Shown here in pieces: positions 6,958-29,360 of a stretch of 32,710 nt of DNA. A program made the translations under genes and the position numbers. How positions within the stretch are numbered: position 1 is the first letter of the stretch; the number at the start of each line of letters is the position of its first letter. A model generated the notes under the pieces. That model was not told the DNA's origin, ran no database searches, and saw only the letters and a program-made list of their open reading frames with translations. Where the stretch lies: the IMG/VR virus record IMGVR_UViG_2711768052_000004, positions 1 through 32,710 of that record; one strand, 5' to 3'. The DNA is from a virus (taxonomy: Duplodnaviria; Heunggongvirae; Uroviricota; Caudoviricetes).

Positions 6958-7029
6958 ACTAACTCAGCACAAGACTCCACTGAGTTAGTATATTTTTATA
7001 CTCCCCTGCGAATTTAGCAGGGAAGTATA
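6958..7029. other. Two adjacent stem-loops just 3' of the cargo gene
   Basis: ACTAACTCAG-N12-CTGAGTTAGT (6958-6989) followed by ATATTTTTATA on the plus strand; TATACTCCCCTGC-N7-GCAGGGAAGTATA (6997-7029, one mismatch). Confidence 0.5.
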
Positions 7030-7060
7030 TTACAAATTAATTTATAGTGGTTATATTAAT

Positions 7061-8500
7061 CTATGATTCACCATTTACCCTTTTATTCTCAGAGCAATAT
7101 AACCATTCAGAAACATTAATTATAGCCTCCGGATGCGAGTGTGTTGAGTGTATTAATATACCATCATTCTGTGGAGCAAATTTAATAACTTTATGATCTC
7201 CAGCTGGAGTTTCAGATGATGCAATAAAAACTTCCGGGCAAAATATTAATCGCAAATCTCCATAAGCTATGGCCTTAGCTACAGCCAACCAAAATGAAAA
7301 AATCGCAACTGGTATTGCTGCAATAAGTAAAACATGAGGAACATCCTTTGATGGTTTCAACCTTTGCCAAATGTGAGAAATAGAAGTTAATACAAAGCTT
7401 ACTAATAATACTATAATCCATGATTTTTCTTCAGGATAGAAGAACCATATTAATACACTCATGGAAATATAAAATAGGTAGCTTAAAACTGCTGACCAAT
7501 GTGTTAGCTTTTTATGACTTACTTGAGCTTTTTTTAGCTGGGAAAGAATTGCAAAACATCCTTCGTGAAGTGAACTTACAAATCTTAGGCCTGAATCGGC
7601 TTCATCACCAATTGCGTGATAAATTTCAACATTCCTAAAATCAACCGCTTCACAGTGCTCGCCACTCTCAACTTCCTGCAAAAATTCTTTTTTATATTTT
7701 TTGGAGATTATAATTTCTGCAAATATTGAAACAAAAAAAATTACTGCTGCATAATTAATATTATATAGATTCAAAGGTACAAAAAATACTGCAAGTAACA
7801 ATTGAATGGCCAAAGTTCCGCTAATATCAATAAGATTAATTAAAGCACCTGACGTTCTTTTTATCCTACGTCGAAAGATGAACGGTGGTGACAAAAGACA
7901 TACGCCTTGAATTTTTTTTGCAATATCACTTCGTAAATAAGACATTTCTCTTACAATAGCTGCCCCATGGCTATGTGCAATAATATAATTGTATTTTGCA
8001 GGAGAGTTATCAATATGCATTCCTAATTGATATGCCGCTTGTTTACGAGAGGATGCAGAGTTTTTGCCATCCCATTTAAATCGAGATATACCAATATTGG
8101 GATTCCTTGAGTTAATTGATTTGCACATTTTTGACTCAGGTTGTGTCCAAGATGCATTCGTCTCGAATGTTCCATGAACAAGGTGAACAATAACATCTTC
8201 TGATTCAGCATTAGCAATATCATTCACGGTTGTTGTTTTAGTCGAGTGGAATATAAAACGCCATGCCGTTGAAATCCCTTTTTGCCAGACAACATAATGG
8301 ACGAGTGCAACGATTAGTATTATTGCGACTGGAATAGTTACAAGGCCTATGGAAATAGTTTTAATTATATACTGAAGAACTCCTTTATTATGGGTGAAAA
8401 AATAATATGCTACAGAGGAAATAAAGAGCACTAGCATAGCCAACATTATCCCAGACAAGCCAAATAATATAATATATTTAATAAAATCGTGATTTCCCAT
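7061..8500 (-). CDS. Cargo protein (479 aa): polytopic membrane protein with a lipase/esterase-like domain; candidate defence effector
   Basis: Long AT-rich ORF in the G-FI slot; about seven hydrophobic helices by eye; soluble segment carries VHLVHGTFE and IIAHSHGAAIV (an A-x-S-x-G nucleophile-elbow-like pentapeptide); AAGG RBS upstream of ATG at 8498-8500. Confidence 0.8.
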   Translation of the reverse strand: MGNHDFIKYIILFGLSGIMLAMLVLFISSVAYYFFTHNKGVLQYIIKTISIGLVTIPVAIILIVALVHYVVWQKGISTAWRFIFHSTKTTTVNDIANAESEDVIVHLVHGTFETNASWTQPESKMCKSINSRNPNIGISRFKWDGKNSASSRKQAAYQLGMHIDNSPAKYNYIIAHSHGAAIVREMSYLRSDIAKKIQGVCLLSPPFIFRRRIKRTSGALINLIDISGTLAIQLLLAVFFVPLNLYNINYAAVIFFVSIFAEIIISKKYKKEFLQEVESGEHCEAVDFRNVEIYHAIGDEADSGLRFVSSLHEGCFAILSQLKKAQVSHKKLTHWSAVLSYLFYISMSVLIWFFYPEEKSWIIVLLVSFVLTSISHIWQRLKPSKDVPHVLLIAAIPVAIFSFWLAVAKAIAYGDLRLIFCPEVFIASSETPAGDHKVIKFAPQNDGILIHSTHSHPEAIINVSEWLYCSENKRVNGES

Positions 8501-8713
8501 TGAATTGCCTTCTATTTGGATAATCGATTATTTAACCTTTCGATTTTGTGGTTTCAACTTGAGGTTCAAACAAGAACATTGCTCGCTAGCAGTTATGAGT
8601 GAATCACTGTTAAGCGATCGTGATTTCAGCTATAGATGATCTGAACTACATGAATGCTGACTCACTAGCCTATTTTACATAATTGTGTGGATGTCTGCTA
8701 TTGGCACATAGCG

Positions 8714-8725
8714 GACTGTCAGATT
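8714..8725. repeat. Right arm of inverted repeat flanking the G-FI cargo gene (GACTGTCAGATT)
   Basis: Exact reverse complement of 6788-6799; lies in the G-to-cargo intergenic region. Confidence 0.6.
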
Positions 8726-8777
8726 AGGCTTTACTCTGTGCTATAGATATGTAAGCTCACACCAGAGATCATACAAC

Positions 8778-9305
8778 TTATTGCGGCATTTCCGGCCATT
8801 CGGGATTTGCAGGATCCACACGACTGACCAGAACGCTGTAGCGTTCCCATGCTTCCAGTCGGCTGCGTTCCTCATCCGTCGCCATATTCAGCCTGACAGC
8901 GCGTTCCAGCGGCAAAATCACGGATTCAGCTTCGGAAAGTAAAGCTGCCTTTTGTGATTCTGCCTGTTGCTCCTGTTCATCTGCCGTATAAATCCGCTTA
9001 ATCACGGCACCATCCTTAAACATCCATTTACCTGAGTCATCAGCACGTCGGTTGGAGGTAATATCAGGAACCTCGACAACGCTGAAACCTTCAGGGTTAA
9101 GCGTTGAAGCATCTCTGGTGATGCCGACAATTATATTATTCTCGTCGTAAACAATCTTTATCGTGTCTTCCTGAAAATTACTTACTTCCTCATACCAGTT
9201 TTTTCCCTCTTCGGACCATAACCAGATAACATCAAAATTTTTTGTCAGTTGATATTGGGCAACAGTTTTTGGATTACCCGCAGTAATATTTTTTAAATGC
9301 TGCAT
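8778..9305 (-). CDS. G: Tail fibre assembly protein gpG (175 aa)
   Basis: 175-aa ORF immediately downstream of H, as in P2. Confidence 0.88.
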
Positions 9306-9308
9306 AAA

Positions 9309-11354
9309 TTACACCTGTGCGACGTTATACCATGTGCCATTGATGTATTTTTGTATTGGCCTGAATACTGCGGGGTCATCACCATCGACTTCACCGACAA
9401 TACCAAGCCCGGTAATTACGTGCCCTGCTTTCTCATACATCACCCCTTTCTGCATGGTCTGGACAACACGTGTGCCAAGTCTGATATCTCTCACATAGCG
9501 GGAATCAAAGTTACCGTAATCCGAGGGATTAACACGCCCCGTAATATTTATGGTCTTATTACTTTGAATGCTTCCGGAAACAAAGCGCATAACATGGACG
9601 TTATTAGCATAAACATCCAGATTACCATCGCCATTTTGTTTAAATCCGGTGTCGTTATCACCAAGAACAATAGAGTTCCCACCCAACGCGTTATTCGTGC
9701 CAAGTGCCAGCCCGCCATCAATCCTGGCACCATTACCAACAGACACAACTCCTGTTCTTAAGTTGATGCCGAATGGCCTTAATGGCCCAATATCTCCATT
9801 TTCACCCTCATTTTCTCGTGTAGGAATGATATACAGGTTTTCTTCAGAACGGCGAAAAATAGCACCAAAAGATGAATTAAATATCCTCAGCGCATTGACT
9901 GTAGATATTTTTACTTCACTACTGAAAAGGGCTTTAACAAGAACATACAGAGCATCCCATTTAAGATTCATCAGGTCTTTTGTTGTGGTGCTCTGGCGAC
10001 TTCTCCATTTGAAATATTCATTGCCGTTGTCACCTGTTTCAAACCACATATATGAATCAGTATCGCTGTCGGCATCATTTTTAAATCCAATCTTTGCCCA
10101 GTCAGTATTTCGAATCCAGGCAAGGATTGAGTCGTTTTCAAAAGTAAGCCCGCCGGACAAGGTATCGCCATTTTTTTGCACGGCGTTCCCGGCCCTGTTT
10201 ACCGTTTCCTGTAAACCGAGATATTCGATAACGGCGGCAACGGTCGATTTAGCCAGAATATCCCGCCCGACTTTTGTCAGGGTCGCCAGGCTGGCAACAT
10301 CATTCCCCGTAAAATACGGAAACCTGTCTGCCGCAGTAGCAAGCCCCGCCAGCGCCGTCAAAGTGGCATCTTTCGGTTGCTTACCCGCAAGCGCATTAGT
10401 CATGGTGGTAGCAAAATTCGGGTCATTGCCCAGCGCCGCCGCCAGCTCGTTCAGCGTATTCAGTGCGTCAGGCGACGAGTCTACAAGGGCGGCAATCGCG
10501 GCCATAACGAAAGCCGTGTTTGCGATCTGAGTATTATTCGTTCCCTGTCGCGCAGTTGGCGTCGTTGGCGTTCCGGTCAGTGCAGGGCTGTTTAATGGCG
10601 CTTTCTTGTTCGTTTCATCCATTACCGTCTTAACGGCTTTTGGTGTTGCGGCGAGCGTTTCAGACATGCTGTTGGTCGCACTACTTAGCTGGACAAGACC
10701 TTTTCGCGCTGTGGTAGCGTCCTGTGCGGTATATTTCCCGTTAGCAAGGTCATATGCGGCCTTAACCGCTTTCGGCGTTGCGGCCAGTGTTTCAGACGTG
10801 CTGTTGGTCGCATTGCTTAACTGAGTAAAACCTTTTGCGGTCAGCGAGGCGTCCGGGTGACGTCGTGACTGTTCATGCTCTGCAATTTTGTCATCAACGT
10901 AATCCTGCGTCGCCATCACCGTTGTGGTGTCAATGGTCAGCTCCACTGAGGCCACACTGCTGACGATGATGACCATGCGACAGGTCTGCGAACGCCCTGA
11001 GCCTTCGGCAAGAGCTGGCTTATAACTTTCGGCCATGTTCGCCACGGCAATTAACGTTCCCGCATCATCGTACAGGCCAAGCTCACGCATCCAGAAGCCG
11101 CCCACCTCCGGCGGAATAACCAGCTCTGCGATAATATAATTACTGTTTCGTTTGTCCTGGCTGATTTTGTTCAGCGCATGTCGCCAGACTTCGTGGATAA
11201 GCCCGGTCTGTCCGGCATCCGGGACAGGCAATTTACCACCGCCATCCCCGACGGCCATCGTGGTAATGTTGACCTTCCGCCCTCCCGGTGCGGTTGCCGC
11301 TGCCAGCTTTGCTGCACCGGCAGTGGTGATAACGGTTTTGAATTTTGTGCTCAT
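9309..11354 (-). CDS. H: Tail fibre protein gpH (681 aa)
   Basis: 681-aa ORF rich in Ala/Thr/Gly/Asn with a repeated module; between I and G as in P2. Confidence 0.9.
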   Translation of the reverse strand: MSTKFKTVITTAGAAKLAAATAPGGRKVNITTMAVGDGGGKLPVPDAGQTGLIHEVWRHALNKISQDKRNSNYIIAELVIPPEVGGFWMRELGLYDDAGTLIAVANMAESYKPALAEGSGRSQTCRMVIIVSSVASVELTIDTTTVMATQDYVDDKIAEHEQSRRHPDASLTAKGFTQLSNATNSTSETLAATPKAVKAAYDLANGKYTAQDATTARKGLVQLSSATNSMSETLAATPKAVKTVMDETNKKAPLNSPALTGTPTTPTARQGTNNTQIANTAFVMAAIAALVDSSPDALNTLNELAAALGNDPNFATTMTNALAGKQPKDATLTALAGLATAADRFPYFTGNDVASLATLTKVGRDILAKSTVAAVIEYLGLQETVNRAGNAVQKNGDTLSGGLTFENDSILAWIRNTDWAKIGFKNDADSDTDSYMWFETGDNGNEYFKWRSRQSTTTKDLMNLKWDALYVLVKALFSSEVKISTVNALRIFNSSFGAIFRRSEENLYIIPTRENEGENGDIGPLRPFGINLRTGVVSVGNGARIDGGLALGTNNALGGNSIVLGDNDTGFKQNGDGNLDVYANNVHVMRFVSGSIQSNKTINITGRVNPSDYGNFDSRYVRDIRLGTRVVQTMQKGVMYEKAGHVITGLGIVGEVDGDDPAVFRPIQKYINGTWYNVAQV
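10629..10825. repeat. Imperfect tandem direct repeat inside H (two units of about 65 bp, period 132 bp)
   Basis: 10629-10692 and 10761-10825 are near-identical; they encode KGFTQLSNATNSTSETLAATPKAVK and KGLVQLSSATNSMSETLAATPKAVK. Confidence 0.8.
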
Positions 11355-11364
11355 TATTCCTCAC

Positions 11365-11895
11365 TTATCCGGGGTAAACCGTAATTACATCGCCGTCGTA
11401 AGCCACACCACCGGCGAACAGGTAGCCGGGAATGTCCCGGGTAATGTTCAGGCCAATAAGATGACGGCTTGCAGGTTTGGCATCAGCAATAAGCCGTTCC
11501 ATTTCCTGATACATTGCCTCTGTGATGCCACTTTCCAGTACACCAATATCAAGCCGGAAGGTGCCTGGCGGGTCACTGTTTTCCCACCACTCCGTCACGT
11601 TGATGAGATAGCCGAGCGGCTCCACCACACGCCGAATTGCGCCGATAGTGCCTTTATGACAGTGGATGAAATAGGCATCGCGGATAACGGCGCGTTTTGT
11701 CACTTCCGGCCACTTTTCATCCCACCTGTCGACTGAAAACGCCCACGCCAGCCACGGCAGCAGATTTGCCGGGCAGGTGTCCGGGTTCCACAGTTCACGA
11801 ATACTGACCGGCGTTTTTTCAATTTCCGCACAGGCTTTCGCGGCAGCAATTTCAAGCGCTGATGAGCCGGTCGGCAGCAGTCGCGAATCACTCAT
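11365..11895 (-). CDS. I: Baseplate protein gpI (176 aa)
   Basis: 176-aa ORF between J and H; start overlaps the J 3' end. Confidence 0.9.
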   Translation of the reverse strand: MSDSRLLPTGSSALEIAAAKACAEIEKTPVSIRELWNPDTCPANLLPWLAWAFSVDRWDEKWPEVTKRAVIRDAYFIHCHKGTIGAIRRVVEPLGYLINVTEWWENSDPPGTFRLDIGVLESGITEAMYQEMERLIADAKPASRHLIGLNITRDIPGYLFAGGVAYDGDVITVYPG

Positions 11896-13148: not shown

Positions 13149-13774
13149 AGAGGACTCCCGGTTGTGCCGCCGCTGTCGCCGGGGTGTTTATGGGTATGCA
13201 GTACCTTACCGTTTGATGAGAGTTCACCGCCGGTGTGTTCAATGTTGCCGCGCATCGTCCCGCCCTTCTGCACTTCCAGCGTGCCGGTAATCAGCCTGTT
13301 GGTGCAGACCACCTCCGGTGTGTCCAGGGTGATGCGGGTTGATGCTTTCACCATGACCACCGGCACCGTGGCAGTAACAGAATCAGAAGCCGTCACGCTG
13401 GCCGTTTTAATTCCGCTTACCATGAGTGCACTGGTTTCGGGTTCATATTCAATCACCGCCCCGTCAGGGAAACGGATATGCAGGGCATCCGCCGACGCAG
13501 ACGGCGCGGGGTTATCGCCGGAATAAATCCCCGGCAGAACGAACGCCGTGTCGAGTTCACCACCCACGGCCAGAATCAGCACCTGTTCCCCCACGGAAGG
13601 TGCCCACCATGTGCGCGAACGCCCGGCGCGATGGGTCAGCCACTGAAGCCAGTCGGTGCACATGCCGCCGGTCTGCACACGGCAGCGACCGGCATTAAGG
13701 TCGGTTTCGACGATAATGCCAGTGCGAATCATATTGCGTATAAAGCGAAGAATTTCATTGTATTGTGCATTCAT
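13145..13774 (-). CDS. V: Baseplate spike/hub protein gpV (209 aa from the chosen start)
   Basis: ORF track gives 235 aa; the Met of MNAQYNEILRFIRNMIRTGIIVETDLNAGRC (ATG at 13772-13774) matches the conserved gpV N-terminal region; stop overlaps W start. Confidence 0.85.
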   Translation of the reverse strand: MNAQYNEILRFIRNMIRTGIIVETDLNAGRCRVQTGGMCTDWLQWLTHRAGRSRTWWAPSVGEQVLILAVGGELDTAFVLPGIYSGDNPAPSASADALHIRFPDGAVIEYEPETSALMVSGIKTASVTASDSVTATVPVVMVKASTRITLDTPEVVCTNRLITGTLEVQKGGTMRGNIEHTGGELSSNGKVLHTHKHPGDSGGTTGSPL

Positions 13775-13860
13775 TCGATAATAATGATTCTGTACAATCT
13801 CGAAGTAAATCACACCACGATTTCTGGTGCACAGAACAACAAGGGACAACAAAATCCATT
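13775..13860. promoter_or_regulatory. Compressed divergent control region: expected late promoter P_V plus the cargo-gene promoter
   Basis: 86-bp spacer between divergently oriented V and the plus-strand cargo gene; plus-strand TACAAT at 13796-13801; P_V placement is positional inference from P2. Confidence 0.35.
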
Positions 13861-14934
13861 ATGAGTACTTACTTTTTCTCGTCAGAAACAATGAAAGAAT
13901 TGTTCAAAGATTATCTGGTCTTTTTGAACACGCTGACTCCCAGCACAAACTTTGAATCAAACAGAAACAAAATAATTGCTCAAGCAATAAACTTCATTTC
14001 CGAAAACCCTGAAGATTGGGACAAAAAATCCCAGTACAACATTGCTATGATTGGCGACACCTTTAAAAGTTTCTTAAGAGAGAAGGGAGAAGATAACAAC
14101 AGCATCAACCTTATATTCACTTGCTTTTTTAGATTTATCATTGAACCAAGCATTCTCTCTCCGGAAATAGAGTCTCACTTTTCACCACTAAGAACCATCA
14201 AGGATTTTGCTCTGTATAACTATAATGAATTCGATGAGCGGAGCAGAGCACAGATAGACTTTTCTCTTAGAGAACTGCCATTAGCAATGGTTAAAGAAGT
14301 TTTAAGCTCCAGCAATGTTGACACATATAAAAAATACATTGATAGTTTAAACGAAGGGCGTCAATTTTTCGAAAAGTGCGACTCCTTCTTAAAGGAGCAA
14401 CATGCCAAAATAGAGTCAATTAAAGAGTCATTAAAAGGGTATGAGGTCGCATTTAATTTTGTTGGATTGTTTGAAGGCTTTAATTCACTTGGCAAAAAGA
14501 AAGAAAGTGAAATCATGCTATCAAGAATAATTCTTATCATCTTGGCTATAATCATTCCCTCCCCGCTGATATACTATGGAATGCATAAATTACCAGCTCT
14601 CGAAACGACAAATGCTGCCACATATTTTATGTCAGCACTACCTTTTGCATCAGTTACATTGATTTTCATGTATTACTTTAGAGTTGTACTGCTAAATCAT
14701 ATATCGTTACGAACTCAGATTATGCAAATAGAACTCAGAAAGAGCCTTTGTCAGTTCATTCAGAGTTATAGCGACTATTCCTCAGAGATAAGGAAAAACA
14801 ATCCGGAAGCGCTTTCAAAATTCGAAGACGTAGTATTTTCAAACATCATGCTATCCGATGATAAGATACCATCTACATTTGATGGCATTGAGCAAATAGC
14901 ATCGTTAATCAATTCATTAAAAAATGGAAAGTAA
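13861..14934 (+). CDS. Cargo protein (357 aa from ATG 13861): soluble N-terminal domain plus two predicted TM helices; function unknown
   Basis: AT-rich ORF on the opposite strand to the flanking late genes, in the S-V slot; hydrophobic IMLSRIILIILAIIIPSPLIYYGM and ATYFMSALPFASVTLIFMYYFRVVLL; start is uncertain (in-frame ATGs at 13765, 13861, 13891). Confidence 0.75.
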   Translation: MSTYFFSSETMKELFKDYLVFLNTLTPSTNFESNRNKIIAQAINFISENPEDWDKKSQYNIAMIGDTFKSFLREKGEDNNSINLIFTCFFRFIIEPSILSPEIESHFSPLRTIKDFALYNYNEFDERSRAQIDFSLRELPLAMVKEVLSSSNVDTYKKYIDSLNEGRQFFEKCDSFLKEQHAKIESIKESLKGYEVAFNFVGLFEGFNSLGKKKESEIMLSRIILIILAIIIPSPLIYYGMHKLPALETTNAATYFMSALPFASVTLIFMYYFRVVLLNHISLRTQIMQIELRKSLCQFIQSYSDYSSEIRKNNPEALSKFEDVVFSNIMLSDDKIPSTFDGIEQIASLINSLKNGK

Positions 14935-18503: not shown

Positions 18504-19247
18504 TTAACTGGCTTTCTTTTTCGGGCGTCCACGTTTTGCCGGTGTCACGCTCCGGGTCTTACGCGGGGCGCGGGTGGCCGCTTTGGGCTGCGGCTCCGGC
18601 TTCGGTTTCAGCTCCCGCTCCAGTCGTTCAATCTCTTTTTTGACGCCTGCCTGACAGTCGAGCTGTGTCGCACGTTGCAGGTGCGCCAGCGCACCGGCGG
18701 CATCACCAGCGTCACGCAGAAACAGACCGGTGATTTTGTGCAGCTTTGCGCGCACTTCATCAGGCATGTCAGCCGTGGCGGTCAGTTCAAGGGTCTCCGT
18801 CAGCAGGCGGGTATCCACGGATTCACCGGCAGCGTGAGCGCGCATGGCCGCAAGCGCCACCTCCTCGGTGAACATGTACGGCGGGGTGCGGCGGTGTTTA
18901 CCCGGCATGGTCAGACCGTACTTCAGGGCATAACGGGCAATCTCCAGCGCACCGGCAATATCGCCGGTATCCAGACGCCACAGCATGACCGTCATCAGAA
19001 TGTCATCCTGTGCACCTTTGCCCTGCTCCAGCACGCCGTTCACCCACGGCAACCAGAACGGCAGCAGTTCGCGTTTTTTCGCGGCCTTCAGCTCTTTTGA
19101 ATAAATTGCTTTCAGTGTGCGCTGGTCTGCGGCCAGCTTGACCAGCATCTGCTCATAGACAGTTGCATGTCGCAGCGGGGCGGCTTCCCGCTGCGCGGTC
19201 ATCGCTGCCGAGACCCGCATCATGTGGCGCTGTGCGGGACTCGTCAT
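18504..19247 (-). CDS. M: Terminase small (endonuclease) subunit gpM (247 aa)
   Basis: 247-aa ORF between N and L; basic C-terminal tail. Confidence 0.9.
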   Translation of the reverse strand: MTSPAQRHMMRVSAAMTAQREAAPLRHATVYEQMLVKLAADQRTLKAIYSKELKAAKKRELLPFWLPWVNGVLEQGKGAQDDILMTVMLWRLDTGDIAGALEIARYALKYGLTMPGKHRRTPPYMFTEEVALAAMRAHAAGESVDTRLLTETLELTATADMPDEVRAKLHKITGLFLRDAGDAAGALAHLQRATQLDCQAGVKKEIERLERELKPKPEPQPKAATRAPRKTRSVTPAKRGRPKKKAS

Positions 19248-19250
19248 CGG

Positions 19251-20324
19251 TTACGCTCCCGGCTCTGCGGTCGCCTTAGCCGGTGTGGAGAAATCACCGA
19301 CCTTAATTTTTTCCACCAGACAACCGGCGGCGTAGTCTTCCACCACGTAATCAATGTTCATTGACTCGTAGTTCTCCACGCGGTCGAGTTTCGGGTTTTC
19401 CTCAATCACGCGGCGATGGCTGTCATCCATGTAGTAGATGGACAGGTTTTCCAGCTTCGTGATGAGCATCGCATCCGCCGGGAAGTACGGGACGCGTACC
19501 GCCGGCAGGTTACCGATGCGTTTCTGGCTGATGATGACGTCAGCGGCCAGCATCTCGCTGTTGTCCTGCTCCTTGTTAACGATGGGGAAATACTTGTCCG
19601 CCAGTAGCTGACGCCCCACAATCACCACAAGGTCAGGGTCTTCCTGATACCACGGCTCAATCAGGTTGTTGGTCGCATCCATCACCAGTGCATCGAGGCT
19701 GGCATAATCACCGCCCTTACCCACGCGGATGACCTCAGAGGTCGTGTGACCTTCCTCGTCAGTGACCTTGCTCATCACGCGCGCCGGGGCTTCATTGCGG
19801 TATTTCTGCAGCCAGCCGACCGCCACATCCTGCAGCATCGGATTACTGTTGCGGTCAGAGGTTTCGGCACGCTTCACGCCGTTAAAACCGGCCATGATGA
19901 AATCAAGGGACTGGCGTTTGATAATGGCGTTACGGATACGGAGCTGGAAATCCTGATAACGCGCCCACAGGTCAAGCGTTTTGTAGCGGATATAAAAATC
20001 GAAGTTAACCTGGTCGCATTCGTACTTGTTGGACGCCAGCTTCGAGAAGTCCTTCGGCTGACGCTCGGTGCCACCGGCAGTGTCGGTCGTGCTGGCAATG
20101 GGGCCGGTGACACCAATACCAATTTTTTCCCCTTTCATTTCGCTGACCGGCACAATATTGATGCGGGTCAGAAAGTCGGAAGACTCCTGCATGGTGTCCA
20201 TCAGGGTCTGGGTGACCGAAGGTTCAACGGTGAATTTTTTCGACACATCACCGGCGTCGATGCCGTTCAGTTCGGCAACACGGGACAGGTAGGCATTAAA
20301 TTTAAAGCGGGTTTCCTGGCGCAT
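19251..20324 (-). CDS. N: Major capsid protein gpN (357 aa)
   Basis: 357-aa ORF between O and M. Confidence 0.92.
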   Translation of the reverse strand: MRQETRFKFNAYLSRVAELNGIDAGDVSKKFTVEPSVTQTLMDTMQESSDFLTRINIVPVSEMKGEKIGIGVTGPIASTTDTAGGTERQPKDFSKLASNKYECDQVNFDFYIRYKTLDLWARYQDFQLRIRNAIIKRQSLDFIMAGFNGVKRAETSDRNSNPMLQDVAVGWLQKYRNEAPARVMSKVTDEEGHTTSEVIRVGKGGDYASLDALVMDATNNLIEPWYQEDPDLVVIVGRQLLADKYFPIVNKEQDNSEMLAADVIISQKRIGNLPAVRVPYFPADAMLITKLENLSIYYMDDSHRRVIEENPKLDRVENYESMNIDYVVEDYAAGCLVEKIKVGDFSTPAKATAEPGA

Positions 20325-20382
20325 ATTTTTTCCTGAAATTAAGGGTTAATCGTGAAGGTTTGCCCGGACTGGCTGACGCCGG

Positions 20383-21237
20383 TCAGCAGTTCGTCATCAG
20401 GGCGTCACCACCACCGCCGGTGGCTTTGCTGCGGCGCTGCTGGGTCAGACTTTCGGTGTGGTCGAGACTGTTTTTCAGGCGGGTGAATGCCTGGCTGGTT
20501 TCATCCGCCCTGTCAGTCACATCCTGCTTAAGTGCAGAAAAGGCGGTTTCCATCTCTGCGAGGCGCTGCTCAGTGGCGCTCAGTTTTTCCTGCACATGTT
20601 CAGCGACAGCGGTCACCGCTTCATGCACATCATTCAGACGGGCGTCATCGCTGGCCTGTTTGCGGCCAAAAATGGATTTCACCTTTTCGGTCAGGGCGGT
20701 GAACACGGTTTCAGGCAGGTCTTCAAATTCCAGCTCAACAGGCGTTGCCACTGAAATCAGGTTTTCAGGGCTTAATTTGAAGCGGTTCAGGGGGTTGTGT
20801 TTTGCCGTGCGGCAGAATTCCAGGTATTCCGTGCCGAGGCTTGCCGGGTCATCGGTGACGGCCAGCCCCACCAGATAACATTTGCCGGTGTTGGCAAAGT
20901 TCGGCTGAATTTCCATTGAGGTGTAGACCTTCTGCGCGGCCTTGTTCATCGCGATAAGGTCATCGGTCGGGGTGATTTTCGCAAACAGCGCCCATTTGCC
21001 TTTCAGCGCCGAATCATCGTCAATCTTTTCGGCCTTCAGTTCGGCCACATCGCCATAACGCTTAAAAATACCGTCAGGCAGGATGCCGCGCAGATGTTCC
21101 AGGTTAATGCGGCAACCATAGACTCGCGGGTCAAAGGTTTCGGCCATTTCCTGAATATCCTGCGCACTGATGACACGCCCGTCACAGGTGTCACCCTCAA
21201 CGCCGATACGAAAGAATTTTGAGACTTTTTTTGCCAT
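20383..21237 (-). CDS. O: Capsid scaffolding protein gpO (284 aa)
   Basis: ORF track gives 306 aa; the internal Met (MAKKVSKFFRIGVEGDTCDG, ATG at 21235-21237) gives 284 aa. Confidence 0.9.
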   Translation of the reverse strand: MAKKVSKFFRIGVEGDTCDGRVISAQDIQEMAETFDPRVYGCRINLEHLRGILPDGIFKRYGDVAELKAEKIDDDSALKGKWALFAKITPTDDLIAMNKAAQKVYTSMEIQPNFANTGKCYLVGLAVTDDPASLGTEYLEFCRTAKHNPLNRFKLSPENLISVATPVELEFEDLPETVFTALTEKVKSIFGRKQASDDARLNDVHEAVTAVAEHVQEKLSATEQRLAEMETAFSALKQDVTDRADETSQAFTRLKNSLDHTESLTQQRRSKATGGGGDALMTNC

Positions 21238-21410
21238 TGTCAGGAGTCCTGAATAGTGATTAGAGGAGTCACATGTCGGCATCAGTTTCCCGACGATGCG
21301 CATCCTCCGCCATCAGTCCCGGATGGCTTATCACTGACACAACAGCACCTTAGCGAATCGCGGGGCGCGACTCAGTAGCCTTGCCGTGTATTCATCACGG
21401 CGAGGTATTC
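21238..21410. promoter_or_regulatory. Divergent late promoter region (expected P_O and P_P, Ogr-activated)
   Basis: 173-bp spacer between divergent O and P; positional inference from P2; no binding site verified. Confidence 0.5.
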
Positions 21411-23183
21411 ATGACCATCACCACAGACACCACTCTTTTACACGACCCGCGTCGTCAGGCGGCGCTGCTGTACTGGCAGGGGTTTTCCGTGCCGCAGATT
21501 GCCGCCATGTTGCAGATGAAACGCCCGACGGTGCAGAGCTGGAAACAGCGCGACGGCTGGGACAGCGTTGCCCCCATCAGCCGTGTCGAAATGAGTCTGG
21601 AAGCGCGACTGACCCAGCTCATCATCAAACCGCAGAAAACCGGCGGTGATTTCAAGGAAATTGACCTGCTGGGACGCCAGATTGAACGACTGGCACGGGT
21701 AAACCGCTACAGCCAGACCGGCAACGAGGCAGACCTTAATCCGAACGTCGCTAACCGCAACAAAGGCGGGCGGCGCAAACCGAAAAAGAATTTTTTCAGT
21801 GACGAGGCCATCGAAAAGCTGGAGCAGATTTTCTTTGAGCAGTCTTTCGAATATCAGTTGTACTGGTATCGCGCCGGGCTTGAGCACCGCATCCGCGATA
21901 TCCTGAAATCCCGCCAGATTGGCGCAACGTTTTATTTTTCCCGCGAGGCGCTGCTGCGCGCCCTGAAAACCGGCCATAACCAGATTTTTCTGTCGGCCAG
22001 TAAAACGCAGGCGTATGTGTTCCGTGAATACATCATCGCCTTTGCCCGTCTGGTTGACGTTGACCTGACCGGTGACCCGATTGTCCTGGGCAATAACGGC
22101 GCAAAACTGATTTTTCTCGGCACAAACTCCAACACTGCGCAGAGCCATAACGGCGACCTGTACGTCGACGAGATTTTCTGGATCCCGAATTTTCAGGTGC
22201 TGCGTAAGGTGGCATCAGGTATGGCCTCACAGAGTCACCTGCGCTCGACCTATTTCTCCACCCCGTCCACGCTGGCGCACGACGCCTACCCGTTCTGGTC
22301 GGGTGAACTGTTCAACCGGGGACGCGCCAGCGCCGCCGAACGCGTGGAAATCGACGTCAGTCATAACGCCCTTGCCGGTGGGCTTCTCTGTGCAGACGGC
22401 CAGTGGCGGCAGATTGTCACCATTGAGGACGCCCTGAAAGGTGGCTGCACGCTGTTCGACATTGAACAGCTCAAACGCGAAAACAGCGCCGACGATTTTA
22501 AAAACCTGTTCATGTGTGAATTTGTTGACGACAAGGCGTCGGTGTTCCCGTTCGAGGAGTTGCAACGCTGCATGGTCGACACGCTGGAAGAATGGGAAGA
22601 CTATGCACCCTTTGCCGCCAATCCGTTCGGTTCCCGCCCGGTATGGATTGGTTACGACCCGTCACACCGTGGCGACAGCGCCGGATGCGTGGTGCTGGCA
22701 CCGCCGGTGGTGGCCGGTGGCAAATTCAGAATACTTGAGCGTCACCAGTGGAAAGGCATGGACTTTGCCACTCAGGCTGAATCCATCCGCAAACTCACCG
22801 AAAAATATAACGTCGAATACATCGGTATTGATGCCACCGGCCTCGGTGTCGGCGTGTTCCAGCTCGTGCGCTCGTTCTATCCCGCCGCGCGCGATATCCG
22901 CTACACGCCGGAAATGAAAACCGCAATGGTGCTCAAGGCAAAAGACGTTATCCGCCGTGGCTGTCTGGAATATGACGTCAGCGCCACCGACATCACCAGC
23001 TCGTTTATGGCTATCCGCAAGACCATGACCAGCAGCGGACGCAGTGCCACCTATGAGGCCAGCCGCAGCGAGGAAGCCAGCCACGCCGACCTCGCCTGGG
23101 CGACCATGCACGCCCTGTTAAATGAGCCACTCACCGCCGGTATCAGCACTCCGCTGACATCCACCATTCTGGAGTTTTACTGA
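21411..23183 (+). CDS. P: Terminase large (ATPase) subunit gpP (590 aa)
   Basis: ORF track gives 600 aa from 21381; ATG at 21411 (MTITTDTTLL) has GAGG upstream and gives 590 aa. Confidence 0.9.
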   Translation: MTITTDTTLLHDPRRQAALLYWQGFSVPQIAAMLQMKRPTVQSWKQRDGWDSVAPISRVEMSLEARLTQLIIKPQKTGGDFKEIDLLGRQIERLARVNRYSQTGNEADLNPNVANRNKGGRRKPKKNFFSDEAIEKLEQIFFEQSFEYQLYWYRAGLEHRIRDILKSRQIGATFYFSREALLRALKTGHNQIFLSASKTQAYVFREYIIAFARLVDVDLTGDPIVLGNNGAKLIFLGTNSNTAQSHNGDLYVDEIFWIPNFQVLRKVASGMASQSHLRSTYFSTPSTLAHDAYPFWSGELFNRGRASAAERVEIDVSHNALAGGLLCADGQWRQIVTIEDALKGGCTLFDIEQLKRENSADDFKNLFMCEFVDDKASVFPFEELQRCMVDTLEEWEDYAPFAANPFGSRPVWIGYDPSHRGDSAGCVVLAPPVVAGGKFRILERHQWKGMDFATQAESIRKLTEKYNVEYIGIDATGLGVGVFQLVRSFYPAARDIRYTPEMKTAMVLKAKDVIRRGCLEYDVSATDITSSFMAIRKTMTSSGRSATYEASRSEEASHADLAWATMHALLNEPLTAGISTPLTSTILEFY

Positions 23184-24217
23184 TGAGCAAGAAAAAAGGG
23201 AAAACACCGCAACCTGCGGCAAAAAAAATGACCGCCAGCGCCCCGAAAATGGAGGCATTCACCTTTGGTGAGCCGGTGCCGGTACTCGACCGCCGTGACA
23301 TTCTGGATTACGTCGAGTGCATCAGTAACGGCAGATGGTATGAGCCACCGGTCAGCTTTACCGGTCTGGCAAAAAGCCTGCGTGCTGCCGTGCATCACAG
23401 CTCACCGATTTACGTCAAACGCAATATTCTGGCCTCGACATTTATCCCGCATCCGTGGCTTTCCCAGCAGGATTTCAGCCGCTTTGTGCTGGATTTTCTG
23501 GTGTTCGGTAATGCGTTTCTGGAAAAGCGTTACAGCACCACCGGTAAGGTCATCAGACTGGAAACCTCACCGGCAAAATATACCCGCCGTGGCGTGGAGG
23601 AGGATGTTTACTGGTGGGTGCCGTCCTTCAACGAGCCGACAGCCTTCACGCCCGGCTCCGTGTTTCACCTGCTGGAGCCCGATATTAATCAGGAGCTGTA
23701 CGGCCTGCCGGAATATCTCAGCGCCCTTAACTCTGCCTGGCTGAATGAGTCGGCCACGCTGTTCCGCCGCAAGTATTACGAAAACGGCGCACATGCCGGA
23801 TACATCATGTACGTCACCGATGCCGTGCAGGATCGCAACGATATCGAAATGCTTCGCGAAAACATGGTGAAGTCGAAAGGCCGCAACAACTTTAAAAACC
23901 TGTTTCTCTATGCCCCGCAGGGGAAAGCCGACGGCATTAAAATTATCCCGCTCAGTGAAGTGGCGACGAAGGACGATTTTTTTAATATCAAAAAAGCCAG
24001 CGCCGCTGACCTGCTGGATGCGCACCGCATCCCCTTTCAGTTGATGGGCGGCAAGCCGGAGAACGTCGGGTCGCTGGGTGATATTGAGAAAGTGGCAAAG
24101 GTCTTTGTCCGCAATGAGCTTATCCCGCTACAGGACAGGATCCGCGAGATAAACGGCTGGCTCGGTCAGGAGGTCATCCGCTTTAAAAACTACTCACTGG
24201 ACACTGACAACGGCTGA
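23183..24217 (+). CDS. Q: Portal protein gpQ (344 aa)
   Basis: 344-aa ORF whose start overlaps the P stop. Confidence 0.92.
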   Translation: MSKKKGKTPQPAAKKMTASAPKMEAFTFGEPVPVLDRRDILDYVECISNGRWYEPPVSFTGLAKSLRAAVHHSSPIYVKRNILASTFIPHPWLSQQDFSRFVLDFLVFGNAFLEKRYSTTGKVIRLETSPAKYTRRGVEEDVYWWVPSFNEPTAFTPGSVFHLLEPDINQELYGLPEYLSALNSAWLNESATLFRRKYYENGAHAGYIMYVTDAVQDRNDIEMLRENMVKSKGRNNFKNLFLYAPQGKADGIKIIPLSEVATKDDFFNIKKASAADLLDAHRIPFQLMGGKPENVGSLGDIEKVAKVFVRNELIPLQDRIREINGWLGQEVIRFKNYSLDTDNG

Positions 24218-24222
24218 ACATC

Positions 24223-24244
24223 GCCGCCTGCGGGCGGCTTTTTT
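24223..24244 (+). terminator. Rho-independent terminator of the P-Q operon
   Basis: GCCGCC-TGCG-GGCGGC followed by TTTTTT, starting 6 nt after the Q stop. Confidence 0.75.
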
Positions 24245-24409
24245 ACACCCCGTCATCACGGCCTCACACGCTCACCACCGCACAAAACACCCCGCAGACA
24301 CACCAACGCCCCGGCAGGCCGACTAAATGCCATCACGACGCGCTCAGACGCAAAAAAACTGTCACTACCACGCCGTTACGTTGGCCACATAAAATGTGGC
24401 CAACTCCAG

Positions 24410-25411
24410 TTATAATAATTTGTCCAGCCTAGCTGAAACAATACCTAGAACAACTGTTGAAACTATATTTACCACCACTCTTAAAATACTCTTCTTTCGC
24501 TTCTTACTATATTCATCATACAACCTCTCATCACCCTTATTTAATACAATGTACGATGCTGGAGTATAACCATCAATTAATCTCTCTAGGCCTTCACCTA
24601 AATGCTCCGCTAACAATGGGATAATAGAAAACGCACCAAGAAAGAGCATTAAAAATTTTACTAACCTTTCTTTATCACCAATATCAATATATTCACCAAC
24701 ATTGTACAGTGCATAACTTAAAATCAATATAGAAAAAGAAAACCGCATAATCAGTGGAATTAAATACGATATCCTTTGAGCTTGCTGTATCAATGGTATT
24801 TTGTTTGTAACTCTTTGACATCCTTCAACCCATTCTTTAAATGCTTCGATAAAACCTCTAGCCACTACATAATCAGCATATTCAACAACTATTTCTGCTG
24901 AACTGGTGAGCATGAATGCAACAAAACGCCCCCTAATGAAAGGTGGTGCATCTTCTTCCATTTCTTTCTGCATAGCAATTCTTGATGCTAATTTAACAGT
25001 AACTTCATAGTGGTTAGGTAATGATGCCCCTGTCGATAAAATTGCAAAGTTATATTTTAAAATTACACTAATTGTTGGACTACTTCCCGCACTACTCGAC
25101 ATTGCAAACTTATCAAAAGAGGTAAACTGTTCCTTTCTATCTTTTGAATGTAAAATAGTTACCGTTTCATTTTTCGATATAATATTATGAACATCACACA
25201 ATTGATTTATTTTTTGATGAACGCTTCTTATCTCATCGATATTTATAAGTAAATTCTCAGAGGTTCTCTGCCTTATTGTTTCTGTTGTTCCCGTTATATG
25301 TTGATAAATTTGCTGATAAATACGAATGCTAGTATTAATATCCCGAGAAGCAGGTAACCCACTATTAACCCCATTATTTTTTTCATTTGACTCATCAATT
25401 ATAATACTCAT
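24410..25411 (-). CDS. Cargo protein (333 aa): soluble N-terminal domain plus three C-terminal TM helices; function unknown; candidate defence effector
   Basis: AT-rich ORF between the cos-like site and Q; AGGA 5 nt upstream of ATG at 25409-25411; hydrophobic ISYLIPLIMRFSFSILILSYALY, LVKFLMLFLGAFSIIPLLAEHL, ILRVVVNIVSTVVLGIVSA. Confidence 0.8.
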   Translation of the reverse strand: MSIIIDESNEKNNGVNSGLPASRDINTSIRIYQQIYQHITGTTETIRQRTSENLLINIDEIRSVHQKINQLCDVHNIISKNETVTILHSKDRKEQFTSFDKFAMSSSAGSSPTISVILKYNFAILSTGASLPNHYEVTVKLASRIAMQKEMEEDAPPFIRGRFVAFMLTSSAEIVVEYADYVVARGFIEAFKEWVEGCQRVTNKIPLIQQAQRISYLIPLIMRFSFSILILSYALYNVGEYIDIGDKERLVKFLMLFLGAFSIIPLLAEHLGEGLERLIDGYTPASYIVLNKGDERLYDEYSKKRKKSILRVVVNIVSTVVLGIVSARLDKLL

Positions 25412-25657
25412 TTTATTTCCTATAAAAACTTAACCAGCAAATTAAACAAAAAGAACACAAGGTTATTATTTAGCGTGCAACAACACGATTGCACAACCAA
25501 ATGCCACGTGTACGAATCTAACCATTCTCTTATATTAAATCAAGTCAATACAACCTAATAGACACATTTTTTATCGCAGTTATACACTTGGTTAACAATA
25601 TGCGGATAGTTACTCAAATCAAATTACATATATGACAAAATGAACAATTGCGCGCAG

Positions 25658-25676
25658 TGCTATCCCCGCCTCGCCT
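25658..25676. other. cos-like site (19-nt cohesive-end sequence)
   Basis: GTGCTATCCCCGCCTCGCC is the reverse complement of GGCGAGGCGGGGATAGCAC, an 18/19 match to the P2 cohesive end as I remember it (GGCGAGGCGGGGAAAGCAC). Confidence 0.65.
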
Positions 25677-25890
25677 GCCCGCTTTATGGGTCGGTTTTAA
25701 TGCAGGTGCACGAATACACCGGAGGCGCGCCGGCACTGGTGGCGCTCAGACGCAACAGGGGAGGAAAACGCATGCAATTGAATGCATTTCTAGGCACACC
25801 TAAAAATGAAAAAATGTTATGACAATTAATCATTTTAAACACACTGATTAAGGGTAGAATTCTCCTAGTAAAATCATAGAAAAACCGCTA

Positions 25891-26820
25891 TCAAACCAGG
25901 CTTTTGCCTTGCTTCATTTTTTTAGATGAGTCTAAAAATTTGAAATTATCATTAGATGAAAATATTCTTTCTGCGGTATGCCGAATGACTGAAGTATTGA
26001 AGACCGCAGCCTGCTCCTCATTACAACTGAATACACCCTCATGACCATCAAACTCGCCCGCCAAAAGAAGGTTTTTTGATACTGGGAACAAAACTAAAGT
26101 GTCTTTTACACCAAACCCGGGGGAATAAGGGCCTCGTGCTAATTCAGGATTAGTCCACATTAAGCAAACTGGGTTATCTGAAGTTATAAATGACCCTTGC
26201 CCATCAGATATGGTCATAAGTGACCAGTTGCGTTGATGCAACAACTTGGTGATAACAGGTACACATTTCATTTCCATATCTATCATGAACTCTCTGATTA
26301 CATTGATTTCGAAATTATCCCCATCCACAAAATTTTTAATTTTTTCGTAAGCGAGATCATATGGCAAAGACTCACCCATTTCTTTCTCATAAGCTAATTT
26401 ACAATCGTCCCAACGCTCAGCCGAACTAACTGAGGATTTCATGATAAACTTTGCTATTTGTTTCAATGGAGATGATAAATGTTCTCGCTGAGCAGGCGTA
26501 CGTATTGCCAATAAGGAAATAAACTCCAGAATAACATCTTTGGTTTCGCCTGAAAACTCGCCCCCCTCCTCAAGTTTTCTTAAATGAGTAGCGACACTGC
26601 CTTCAAACTCTGCAAGAGAACTCTCGAGATAGTTTGGGTCAACTCCATCCAATTCTAATCGGTTGAAATCTCTAACCCCCCCGACATTGCGAGTATTACT
26701 CTCAAAAGTTTTGCGCTCCTTTAAATCTATTACAGTTAATTTTGATTTTTTCCCCCCATTACTTGTAAACCCTTTCAAATAACATTGGGATAAAAAATGA
26801 TGATGCCTTGCAACACTCAT
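25891..26820 (-). CDS. Cargo protein (309 aa from ATG 26820) with DUF4238-like N-terminal motif; candidate single-gene defence protein
   Basis: AT-rich ORF between A and the cos-like site (the P2 tin/old slot); N-terminus MSVARHHHFLSQCYLKGFT fits the H-x3-Q-x-YL-x2-F signature I associate with DUF4238; GGAG 6 nt upstream of the chosen ATG. Confidence 0.75.
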   Translation of the reverse strand: MSVARHHHFLSQCYLKGFTSNGGKKSKLTVIDLKERKTFESNTRNVGGVRDFNRLELDGVDPNYLESSLAEFEGSVATHLRKLEEGGEFSGETKDVILEFISLLAIRTPAQREHLSSPLKQIAKFIMKSSVSSAERWDDCKLAYEKEMGESLPYDLAYEKIKNFVDGDNFEINVIREFMIDMEMKCVPVITKLLHQRNWSLMTISDGQGSFITSDNPVCLMWTNPELARGPYSPGFGVKDTLVLFPVSKNLLLAGEFDGHEGVFSCNEEQAAVFNTSVIRHTAERIFSSNDNFKFLDSSKKMKQGKSLV

Positions 26821-26923
26821 ACTCAGCTCCGTTATGGCTATAATCGCATAAATAATAAGCACTTATATTGCAATCATCTAGTTAAATACACAATATTTAT
26901 GACTCCGAAATTTCATTAAATCA

Positions 26924-29095
26924 CTATTGATAGGTTTTACCAATTAGTGCCAGCTCGAAATGGATGCGTGGAATCTGCGAACGTTCAGCCTTTGTCATCC
27001 GCCCTGATGGCGCTATCTGGTACGGTTTTAATGGTTCGCAGTTTCTTTGTTGCCAATTCGGTCTCGGTGCACCATGTTTTAATGCACTCCTGAGCACCGT
27101 CACAACTTCCGGGTCATCCCATCCGATAACACCACTATCAACCAGATTTAACACCGCTGCGGCATGCTCAGACGGTGTAGGGTGCATAACCGGAACGTCA
27201 CCGCCGGTGAACTTTCCACAGTTATTGACAGGACTCCGAGGCGCGGCGATGCCGCTTTTTAAAGTCAAAGGCTCAACGACCGGAACTTTCGGCACAATGC
27301 GCCAGTCCGTCGTTCTGGTGATATGAATATGACGCGCGCCGAGATGCGGCGCGTAAATGCCGACCACTCTCTCGACTTCTTCCTCGTACTCGTTAACTTC
27401 ATCCGACGGACTACGGGCGACCCTGACAGTCTGACAATCGCGCGGGACATTTGCCCCACCCTGCGCGCTGATATACAACGCAAAATCACCACTGTCTGCG
27501 GCGGCGCGTGCAGCCTCGACTCGCTCGTCAAACTCATCAGCAATGCTGACGCCGCGAGGCAATTTTCGTAGTTCACGGTAAGCCCCCATTGTCGGCAGAC
27601 CAACCGTTTTAAATTGTGGGATGCGCCACGTTGACGCCCATGCGGTAACAGCCGCAGCAGTGTCTTTCAGCGGTCTGCCGGTATCGTTATCGAGCTGACC
27701 ATCCAGTGCATAGCCATCGATGTTTTTTGAGATGTATTTCGCGATATACCCCGCAGCACCGCCCTGGTTAAGGTGTTTTGCCTGAAAACGGTTTCGCGCG
27801 GCTCCTCTTTCGTCGCCATCCTCTTTGAGCGCATAGCGACGCATGATTTCGATAATCTGGTTACGCTGGCGTGGATTACAAAAAAGCATCATATGCCAGT
27901 GCGGCGTTCCGTCGTGGTGTGGCTCGACGACACGCAAACCGTAGACCTGTAAATCATTATCCTTGAATGCCGTGCGCATCAGGCTCCAGATATGGCAGAG
28001 ATAACGCTGCGCATCCTTTGGATTAAATGCCTCATCGTTCCAGCCGTGATTTAGCTGGACGGTTTTACTTTCGCCTTTTCCGACCTGACGTGTCGGGTGA
28101 TACTTTGACGGCGCGGTAAGCGTGATAAACATCCCCACATCACCCTCTGCGGCGGCGTAACGCTCAATACCGGCAATGGTGTTCATCAGCTCCATCCGGC
28201 GAATTTCAGGATTAGAAATACTGCCCATCACCTTACTGATAAGGTCGATGCGCTCGCCGGTTTCCCTGTTTTCAAGGTCACACGATTTAAGAAATTCCAG
28301 ATTTGCCTGGCGGCGTGCACGCACATCACGAATGGCATGTTTACTGGCATAAGGAGAACGGTCTTTATTCACCTCCCCGACAGCAATCAGTAACGCCTCA
28401 TGCCAGCGCATACGCTGGCCTTTGAGCTGATGAGTCCACCACTCATCGTTAAACAGACGGGCAATGGCAGAATATGCCTGCCTCGTGGTCATCTGTCCTT
28501 TACGGTATTTTTTCCAGTAAAGCGGGGAAATATTGAAAGCACGTGCAGCGCCAGCAACATGACCATAGAGGTGAGCCTGCGCCTCATCCGTAAACAGCGA
28601 TTCTTTTTCGCCATGTGCATCCACCCAGGCATCGCTGAGTTCCTCATACATCATGAAAAGCTGCGATGAGATACGGGCGGCAAACTTTTTCAGCTCCTTG
28701 TCATTCATTCCCGGCAGGCGCGCATAGTGGTCACGCTCTGCCAGAAACAGCAACGACGCGTCGGTGTTCATTTCATGGCGCTGATTCACACGCTCAATGC
28801 GCGGCCATAAACGACGCTGAAAAGTGGATGTGAGGAAATAAAACCCGTGCACCGGGCTTTTATTGCGCCGGATGTAGTCATAGCGTGAAGTAAACAGCGA
28901 GCGCAAAAAGTAAGGCAGGCGGTTAATCGTGGATAAAACACCTTGCACCTGACGCATCTCGTCACGTGTAAGGGGTCTTTCGCGCCCGACGGCCTCGCGT
29001 GGCGCGTTCCATGCATAAGCACCGGTAAACGTCTCACCGGTGCCTGCGGCAAATGCTGACGGAGGGACAAAATGCCCGGAGGCTTTAACGGTCAT
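26924..29095 (-). CDS. A: Replication initiation protein gpA (rolling-circle nickase family)
   Basis: 737-aa ORF; likely start at the Met of MTVKASGHFVPP (ATG at 29093-29095), with 29137 as an alternative; position at the end of the early operon. Confidence 0.88.
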   Translation of the reverse strand: MTVKASGHFVPPSAFAAGTGETFTGAYAWNAPREAVGRERPLTRDEMRQVQGVLSTINRLPYFLRSLFTSRYDYIRRNKSPVHGFYFLTSTFQRRLWPRIERVNQRHEMNTDASLLFLAERDHYARLPGMNDKELKKFAARISSQLFMMYEELSDAWVDAHGEKESLFTDEAQAHLYGHVAGAARAFNISPLYWKKYRKGQMTTRQAYSAIARLFNDEWWTHQLKGQRMRWHEALLIAVGEVNKDRSPYASKHAIRDVRARRQANLEFLKSCDLENRETGERIDLISKVMGSISNPEIRRMELMNTIAGIERYAAAEGDVGMFITLTAPSKYHPTRQVGKGESKTVQLNHGWNDEAFNPKDAQRYLCHIWSLMRTAFKDNDLQVYGLRVVEPHHDGTPHWHMMLFCNPRQRNQIIEIMRRYALKEDGDERGAARNRFQAKHLNQGGAAGYIAKYISKNIDGYALDGQLDNDTGRPLKDTAAAVTAWASTWRIPQFKTVGLPTMGAYRELRKLPRGVSIADEFDERVEAARAAADSGDFALYISAQGGANVPRDCQTVRVARSPSDEVNEYEEEVERVVGIYAPHLGARHIHITRTTDWRIVPKVPVVEPLTLKSGIAAPRSPVNNCGKFTGGDVPVMHPTPSEHAAAVLNLVDSGVIGWDDPEVVTVLRSALKHGAPRPNWQQRNCEPLKPYQIAPSGRMTKAERSQIPRIHFELALIGKTYQ

Positions 29096-29360
29096 ATGAG
29101 CCAAAAGCCTCTGAACAACGCTTGCTGAGTTGCTCAACCTGCGCGTTTAAATCAGCAAAAGACTTTGCGCTTCCGGTCAGAATATCGTGATGCATCAGGC
29201 CGGAAACGAGCTGGCTTAATTTCGGGTAATAACCAACCACCGCCAGCCATTCCTGACCGGCGTTTTTACCGCTTTCCGCTCTCTTTTTCTCGTGGAGAAT
29301 AAACTGAAAGCTGTCACTGGTAACGACATAACGTTCGCCAATTTCAATACGAATACTCAT
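29085..29360 (-). CDS. Early-operon small protein (91 aa), P2 orf83-position analogue
   Basis: ORF translationally coupled to the upstream ORF (ATGA overlap) and overlapping the A start. Confidence 0.6.
   Translation of the reverse strand: MSIRIEIGERYVVTSDSFQFILHEKKRAESGKNAGQEWLAVVGYYPKLSQLVSGLMHHDILTGSAKSFADLNAQVEQLSKRCSEAFGSYDR

Follow-up and report, generated by a model that had tools for sequence, protein, structure and literature searches.

A P2-type cos site with an asymmetric conserved signal between two cargo modules of a P2-like prophage

A 19-nucleotide sequence, GTGCTATCCCCGCCTCGCC, lies at positions 25657–25675 of a stretch of viral DNA of 32,710 nucleotides (the whole of which is called the window here), between two cargo genes that are in turn bounded by the portal gene Q and the replication gene A of a P2-like prophage. 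Is it the cohesive end of the packaged genome, how much of the DNA around it belongs to the cos signal, and what does its position tell us about the cargo on either side? The minus strand of the 19-mer, GGCGAGGCGGGGATAGCAC, its reverse complement, is the equivalent of the P2 top strand and shares 18 of its 19 bases with the P2 cohesive end, GGCGAGGCGGGGAAAGCAC, the one difference being an A-to-T change in the overhang. We took the reference from the P2 record itself, AF063097, where it is annotated as cosL (1–19) and as cosR. A preliminary description of the window had proposed just this match in reverse complement, and the P2 sequence on which it relied proves to be the annotated one. The coordinates that it gave, 25658–25676, need a small correction: the sequence is present but its true span begins one base to the left. 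The P2 cos pattern has a single match in the window at three or fewer mismatches, where 0.01 are expected (100 shuffles). The allele of the 19-mer carried by the window is found also in phage pro483 and in eight other P2-like prophage loci; it occurs in Enterobacter-group prophages. On sequence grounds, an apparently intact P2-like (Peduovirus) prophage very probably has its cos site here, from 25650 to about 25800.

The window contains a complete prophage of this type in reverse P2 orientation, from ogr to int, and a nearly identical prophage of E. coli STN0717-20 sits between pflB and pflA. Prophages of the P2 type are not SOS-inducible. The terminase, portal and structural reading frames are intact, as is the rest of the P2 gene order. 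On the minus strand lie a gpM-like small terminase subunit of 247 aa (18504–19247; Pfam Phage_term_smal, 3e-48), the capsid gene N (19251–20324) and the scaffold gene O (20383–21303). These are followed on the plus strand by the gpP-like large terminase or ATPase subunit (21381–23183; Pfam Terminase_5, Terminase_6N and Terminase_6C) and the gpQ portal protein of 344 aa (23183–24217; Pfam Phage_portal), which aligns with Q of P2 and pro483. The gpA replication endonuclease is encoded at 26924–29137 (minus strand; Pfam Phage_GPA, 2e-124), and cos thus lies between Q and A in a prophage whose cognate terminase genes, M and P, are intact. Directly after Q a remnant of the Q-to-cos spacer (24218–24376, plus strand) aligns with P2, pro483 and 186 and includes the tQ hairpin, a terminator-like site at 24223–24238, equivalent in place to the tQ annotated in P2. 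Homology to the standard spacer stops at about 24376; in cargo-free relatives the spacer runs straight into cos.

Anchored on the cohesive end, P2, 186, P4 and the window have in common the pattern ...CTGCATTAAAACCG.CCC....AAG.GGGC. / 19-mer /.GCGCGC. The cos core of the window is made up of 7 + 19 + 29 = 55 bp (25650–25704) and is in register with those of P2, 186 and P4 (AF063097, U32222 and NC_001609), all of which have GCGCGC, the 19-mer and 29 bp ending in TTTTAATGCA, with distal ATGCA repeats and a site placed between portal and replication genes. Alignment with the P2 and 186 cos regions, the check that the preliminary description had proposed, gives this common core directly. A 55-bp core shared by P2-type cos sites was described by Ziermann & Calendar in 1990, as cited in PMC5694545 and PMC9594776, and we take 25650–25704 to be that core. 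The window differs from the three reference sites in the A-to-T change in the overhang, in a degenerate third ATGCA and in a spacer split by a 1.27-kb insertion.

The extent of the signal was determined from 80 P2-like loci, one per bacterial species, fetched with a gpQ query; Q and cos were both located in 79 of them, and the conservation profile was computed over 80 distinct cos sequences at a threshold of at least 95%. Conservation at this level is limited to positions −7 to −1 (GCGCGCA), most of the 19-mer, and +19 to +47 (TGCCCGCTT...TTTTAATGCA), and every position so conserved is present in the cos core of the window. On the Q side, which would become the left end, GCGCGCA (25650–25656) is the sole conserved flank, and P2, 186, P4 and the window all diverge immediately beyond GCGCGC. 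On the A side, the prospective right end, the 29-bp part of the core, TGCCCGCTTTATGGGTCGGTTTTAATGCA (25676–25704), is conserved in the 80 loci as well as in P2, 186 and P4, and is followed by an extended flank at 25705–25806, the last position being that at which BLAST similarity of the window to other P2-like phages stops. The motif ATGCA recurs through the A side at fixed offsets from cos, at +43 and at about +115, +125 and +135; copies are found in the +40s in 78 of the 80 loci, in the +110s and the +120s in 62 each, and in the +130s in 72. The array is present in P2, 186 and P4 also and the motif is essentially absent elsewhere within ±200 bp. Copies in the window are at 25700–25704, 25772–25776 and 25782–25786, so that two of the three distal repeats are intact; the third reads AGGCA and is in the same state in pro483. 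The array may well serve in recognition by the terminase. The literature that we searched gave no description of it, and on the minimal length of cos yielded only the statement of the 55-bp core.

The conserved signal over the 80 loci thus comes to ~150 bp in all, of which 7 bp lie towards Q and ~130 bp towards A. The preliminary description had placed the flanks to be preserved for packaging within about 215–245 bp on each side. Its gene geometry is correct, the start codon of a 333-aa cargo gene being 245 bp from the 19-mer and the stop-codon end of a DUF4238 gene (25891) 215 bp from it, but as a measure of the preserved flank these distances are too loose and give an upper bound only. The 238 bp between the 333-aa start codon and GCGCGCA are part of a cargo module, not cos flank.

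Several smaller features accompany the site. An imperfect GC-rich palindrome, GCGCCGGCACTGGTGGCGC, is located at 25727–25745, between the core and the distal ATGCA repeats, and may be a terminator for A-side transcription; palindromes of the form CGCCAGCxCTGGCG are found at +45 to +80 from cos in many relatives and in 186 and P4, and are absent in P2 itself. A perfect 14-nt direct repeat, GCGCTCAGACGCAA, occurs in the Q-proximal spacer (24340–24353) and again in the A-side cos flank (25742–25755), 1,402 bp apart, where by our own estimate roughly 0.005 would be expected by chance in 1.7 kb. Cargo-free relatives have a Q-side motif, GCTCAGRCGC, about 35–45 bp from cos, P4 carries CGCTCAGAC on its right-end side, and the phiCTX record annotates repeats R4–R6 across its cos. 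A reading frame of 60 aa (25640–25822, plus strand) crosses the core, at a place where pro483 is annotated with a 40-aa hypothetical ORF12; it is almost certainly not a gene.

The cargo on the A side, which starts about 130 bp from the nick position, is an open reading frame of 323 aa at 25891–26862 on the minus strand (Pfam DUF4238, 5e-39; PHROG 29785). The PADLOC model DUF4238-Pers matches it at 1.8e-219 over residues 15–323, and the real gene is therefore probably 25891–26820 (minus strand), starting at Met15 and encoding 309 aa. This is equal to ORF11 of pro483, to which the protein is 100% identical. By this match the hotspot in the window carries a recognised anti-phage system; strong protection against T7 has been shown for one DUF4238 protein of the P2 hotspot (Rousset et al. 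2022, PMC9122126). The likeness to pro483 (KR073661) goes beyond the DUF4238 gene itself and takes in the cos core with its extended flank and, at its 3′ end, gene A. On the Q side the two differ, pro483 having an ordinary Q-to-cos spacer of 168 bp and no cargo. A literature search for virion evidence on pro483 found nothing useful.

The Q-side cargo module of the window is 1,273 bp long (24377–25649, minus strand) and ends directly against GCGCGCA, so that the standard 160-bp spacer between Q and cos is split by a 1.27-kb insertion; the Q-to-cos interval is 168–186 bp in P2, 186 and pro483, which are without the module. It consists of a perfect hairpin with an 11-bp stem at 24380–24404, just downstream of the gene, the 333-aa reading frame itself (24410–25411, minus strand) and 238 bp of AT-rich upstream DNA. 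Both cargoes stand apart in composition, with 33% GC in the Q-side module and 37% in the A-side cargo compared with 53% for Q and A. As traces of transposition we looked for target duplications and terminal inverted repeats at the cargo junctions and found no convincing insertion signature. The whole module is found at 99.6% identity or better in 10 of 5,426 complete E. coli genomes, equivalent to 10 of about 1,700 E. coli P2-like prophage places, in strains from Japan, the USA, China, Egypt, Belgium and Panama. It has no similarity to any phage record, and none of the 50,697 phage records searched contains a member of the 333-aa family. The exact protein is indexed in 597 blocks of a sequence collection. 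One of the E. coli copies, in strain H9 (NZ_CP195976.1, locus 4932–6471), has its 333-aa gene interrupted by IS1A.

The 333-aa protein belongs to an uncharacterised family. It has no match above threshold in Pfam, PADLOC, PHROG, NCBIfam or PDB; its 197 detectable homologues, with ~40% identity and from Proteobacteria, are all named “hypothetical”. In an AlphaFold2 model (pLDDT 82) an alpha/beta domain at the N-terminus is followed by three long helices at the C-terminus, and hydropathy likewise predicts three transmembrane segments at about residues 214–236, 250–272 and 308–330. Fold searches with the model gave generic matches only, none of them informative. Relatives occupy the same Q-side slot in Yersinia enterocolitica, in Klebsiella pneumoniae and in a Pantoea prophage remnant; that in Yersinia enterocolitica adjoins a gene for an AAA_15/AAA_21 ATPase, and a relative in Acidovorax adjoins an integrase. 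Q-side cargo proteins of 355–359 aa in Dryocola and Buttiauxella (L055:9105–10169 and L065:9130–10206) have the same layout, with hydrophobic helices at the C-terminus after a soluble N-terminal domain. Aligned with HHalign, the 333-aa protein matches these two weakly, at a probability of 15%, and may be a distant relative of them.

Cargo on both sides of cos is already known in P2-like phages. The cos-proximal region between gpA and gpQ is a defence hotspot (Rousset et al. 2022, PMC9122126; also PMC13586616), and the window resembles it in having variable, AT-rich and defence-rich content between A and Q next to cos. As set out in the accessible passages of these papers, the hotspot is defined by its flanking genes A and Q and the two sides of cos are not separated; the window fills the sub-slot on the Q side too. 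The interval between cos and Q was itself proposed as a hotspot by Dodd & Egan (1996) and Nakayama (1999), as quoted in PMC5694545; cargo there has been known since 1996–1999. Examples are the retrons Ec67 and Ec86 of 186-like prophages, which lie between cosL and the portal gene (Dodd & Egan 1996, via PMC5694545), ORF1–4 of phiRSY1 in the same place (PMC5694545) and, from its record, the ctx toxin gene of phiCTX between cosL (1–21) and Q (1417–2469). In these phages, as in the window, foreign genes interrupt the stretch from cos to the portal-operon terminator or take its place; the cargo of the window differs in being an unnamed membrane protein of 333 aa.

How often the Q side is filled can be judged from the same set of loci. 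The interval from Q to cos exceeds 0.5 kb in 32 of the 79 species-representative loci, with a maximum of 4.2 kb, and unrelated DNA starts directly beyond GCGCGCA in 25 of the 35 loci (the window included) in which the interval is longer than 230 bp. E. coli has spacer and cos contiguous in 1,515 of 1,608 records, and the Q-side slot filled in at most 6%. A filled Q-side slot is thus uncommon in E. coli and common across other species. The intervals of other genera encode Olokun, Lamassu, PD-T7-4 and PADLOC candidate (PDC) systems, a type II methyltransferase and HicAB-like pairs. Two isolates that were checked, vB_YpM_50 and ST147-VIM1phi7.1, have no Q-side cargo.

The two sides of cos have different relatives. 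From 19801 to 25649 the window is 99.0–100% identical, in 200-bp segments, to the prophage of STN0717-20, and from 25650 to about 27200 it is 99.5–100% identical, by the same measure, to pro483. Ten E. coli loci with the Q-side module carry the P2 allele of the 19-mer together with a different A-side core haplotype; the window must therefore pass from one parent to the other within 13 bp (25649 to 25662), where the cos core borders on the Q side. A second crossover falls near 27200, within gene A. Towards its 3′ end (27001–27200) this gene is 100% identical to its pro483 counterpart and only 74–77% identical to those of nine other closely related prophage lineages, which indicates that the C-terminus of gpA travels with the A-side (DUF4238) cargo module. 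An identical 333-aa gene is paired in other E. coli with at least seven different A-side modules; its partners are an AAA ATPase, a HEPN protein, DUF7380, a reverse transcriptase, a DUF3850 cluster, other hypothetical proteins, or nothing at all, and DUF4238, the arrangement of the window, is the partner in two assemblies. Gene content between A and Q is accordingly highly variable, with at least seven A-side modules beside the same Q, Q-side cargo and cos. As judged from these alignments, the window is a recombinant in which the Q-side and the A-side cargo are independently exchangeable modules. The suggestion in the preliminary description that the layout dates both insertions relative to the packaging site finds no support, because the modules exchange independently and the window is itself a recombinant that switches at the cos core.

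The identification of a P2-type cos site is a matter of observed sequence identity and conservation pattern, whilst cleavage and packaging in this prophage we infer by analogy with P2. The substrate would be replicated circular DNA: the gpM/gpP terminase would recognise its cos region and nick the two strands 19 nt apart (25657/25675), at the two ends of the 19-mer, to give linear virion DNA whose cohesive ends are 5′ overhangs. The left end would then carry the 333-aa gene and Q, and the right end A with the DUF4238 gene, so that the placement of the two cargo genes at the extreme ends of the packaged genome, as the preliminary description had it, agrees with the position of a P2-type cos. 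Foreign DNA could then sit as close as 7 bp to the nick on the Q side, compared with ~130 bp for cargo on the A side; it would be tolerated there because so little conserved signal is needed on that side. The cos core, or the physical end that it forms, would act as a short block of homology across which the two cargo modules exchange independently.

Could the 19-mer resemble the P2 cos by chance and have no packaging role? Nothing favours this beyond the single mismatch to P2, and with 0.01 matches expected by chance, the 19-mer embedded in a full 55-bp core with its ATGCA array, and its position the canonical one, flanked by the Q and A genes of a complete P2-like set, its probability is close to nil. 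A different possibility is that the site is a relic, packaging having been inactivated by cargo 7 bp from the nick or by the degenerate third ATGCA, in a defective prophage that spreads only vertically. The degenerate repeat itself, the rarity of the 333-aa module among E. coli P2-like prophage places and its absence from sequenced phage records would all fit. We nevertheless find a relic improbable, since all invariant positions of the core and the terminase, portal and structural reading frames are intact, GCGCGC(A) likewise abuts unrelated DNA in P4, whose packaging relies on the P2 terminase (PMC9122126), and in 24 further prophage lineages, and pro483 has the same A-side flank. Moreover, the occurrence of the module in strains from six countries, beside different A-side modules and with the exact protein in 597 blocks, argues for repeated horizontal movement and recombination. 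As to how the two sides came together, the junction, a single case, fits either recombination within the short core or end joining between two genomes. In the latter case the cohesive ends of two co-resident P2-like genomes would anneal and be ligated, a route on which Rousset et al. speculate (PMC9122126); this would account for a switch confined to 13 bp at the Q-side edge, with the 19-mer allele and the whole A-side core following the pro483-like parent, and thirteen identical bases are few for an exchange of the RecA type. Set against this, there is only the one case, a crossover within a core of ~61 bp at roughly 93% identity has a prior chance of about 0.2 of falling in the first 13 bp, and unsampled intermediates may exist; the second crossover inside gene A is ordinary homologous recombination, and the left arm as a whole is not from one parent. 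We therefore regard end joining as rather unlikely. A swap of the whole arm, joined at cos and at att as might follow from packaging across tandem lysogens, was considered and rejected: the essentially 100% identity to the STN0717-20 prophage is confined to the stretch from ~19.8 kb to cos, with 98–99% further to the left.

The role of the Q-side cargo is less certain. Our best guess, and the most likely reading of its location and architecture, is that the 333-aa protein is a defence or exclusion factor encoded by the prophage, its N-terminal domain acting as the sensor and its three transmembrane helices as the effector. A sensor-like domain and transmembrane helices in a single gene are a common architecture among abortive-infection effectors. 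It might instead be another kind of lysogenic-conversion factor, such as a modifier of the surface or envelope or a fitness or virulence factor: PADLOC does not recognise it, cargo in the Q-side position can be a toxin, as ctx is in phiCTX, and homologues are found outside prophages also, next to integrases in Acidovorax. This we hold to be on the doubtful side, given that the Q-side interval of relatives is dominated by recognisable defence and toxin-antitoxin systems, that the Yersinia neighbour is an ATPase gene of a sort typical of defence loci, and that the domain arrangement is the one just described. Returning to the reading as a defence or exclusion factor, a more specific version can be put forward tentatively, as a possibility short of a probability: the protein would be an undescribed single-gene anti-phage system, of the abortive-infection or exclusion type, in a portal-side sub-hotspot 7 bp from the cos nick, with the cos core or cohesive end as the joint at which both defence slots are independently reshuffled.

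The assignment of cos gives the correct annotation for this region, with the predicted virion ends of the prophage and both flanking genes as accessory cargo in a documented hotspot. The gpA–gpQ hotspot is in effect two slots, split by cos and assorting independently, of which that on the portal side is common outside E. coli, with Olokun, Lamassu and other systems. The asymmetric map, 7 bp on the portal side and ~130 bp with the ATGCA repeats on the replication side, should be of use in the design of P2/P4 cosmids and in delimiting hotspots. The 333-aa family, a widespread and unannotated family of membrane proteins, is a candidate for a defence gene and a modest lead.

Away from cos, two further reading frames resemble cargo. 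One of 479 aa (7061–8500, minus strand) lies between the tail sheath gene and the tail fibre assembly gene G, in the Z/fun position, and one of 389 aa (13765–14934, plus strand) lies between V and S, in the orf30 position; neither has a Pfam or PADLOC match. The tail-fibre region (H and G, 6731–11458) is the only long stretch of the window without high identity to the prophage of STN0717-20 and is a typical host-range module swap.
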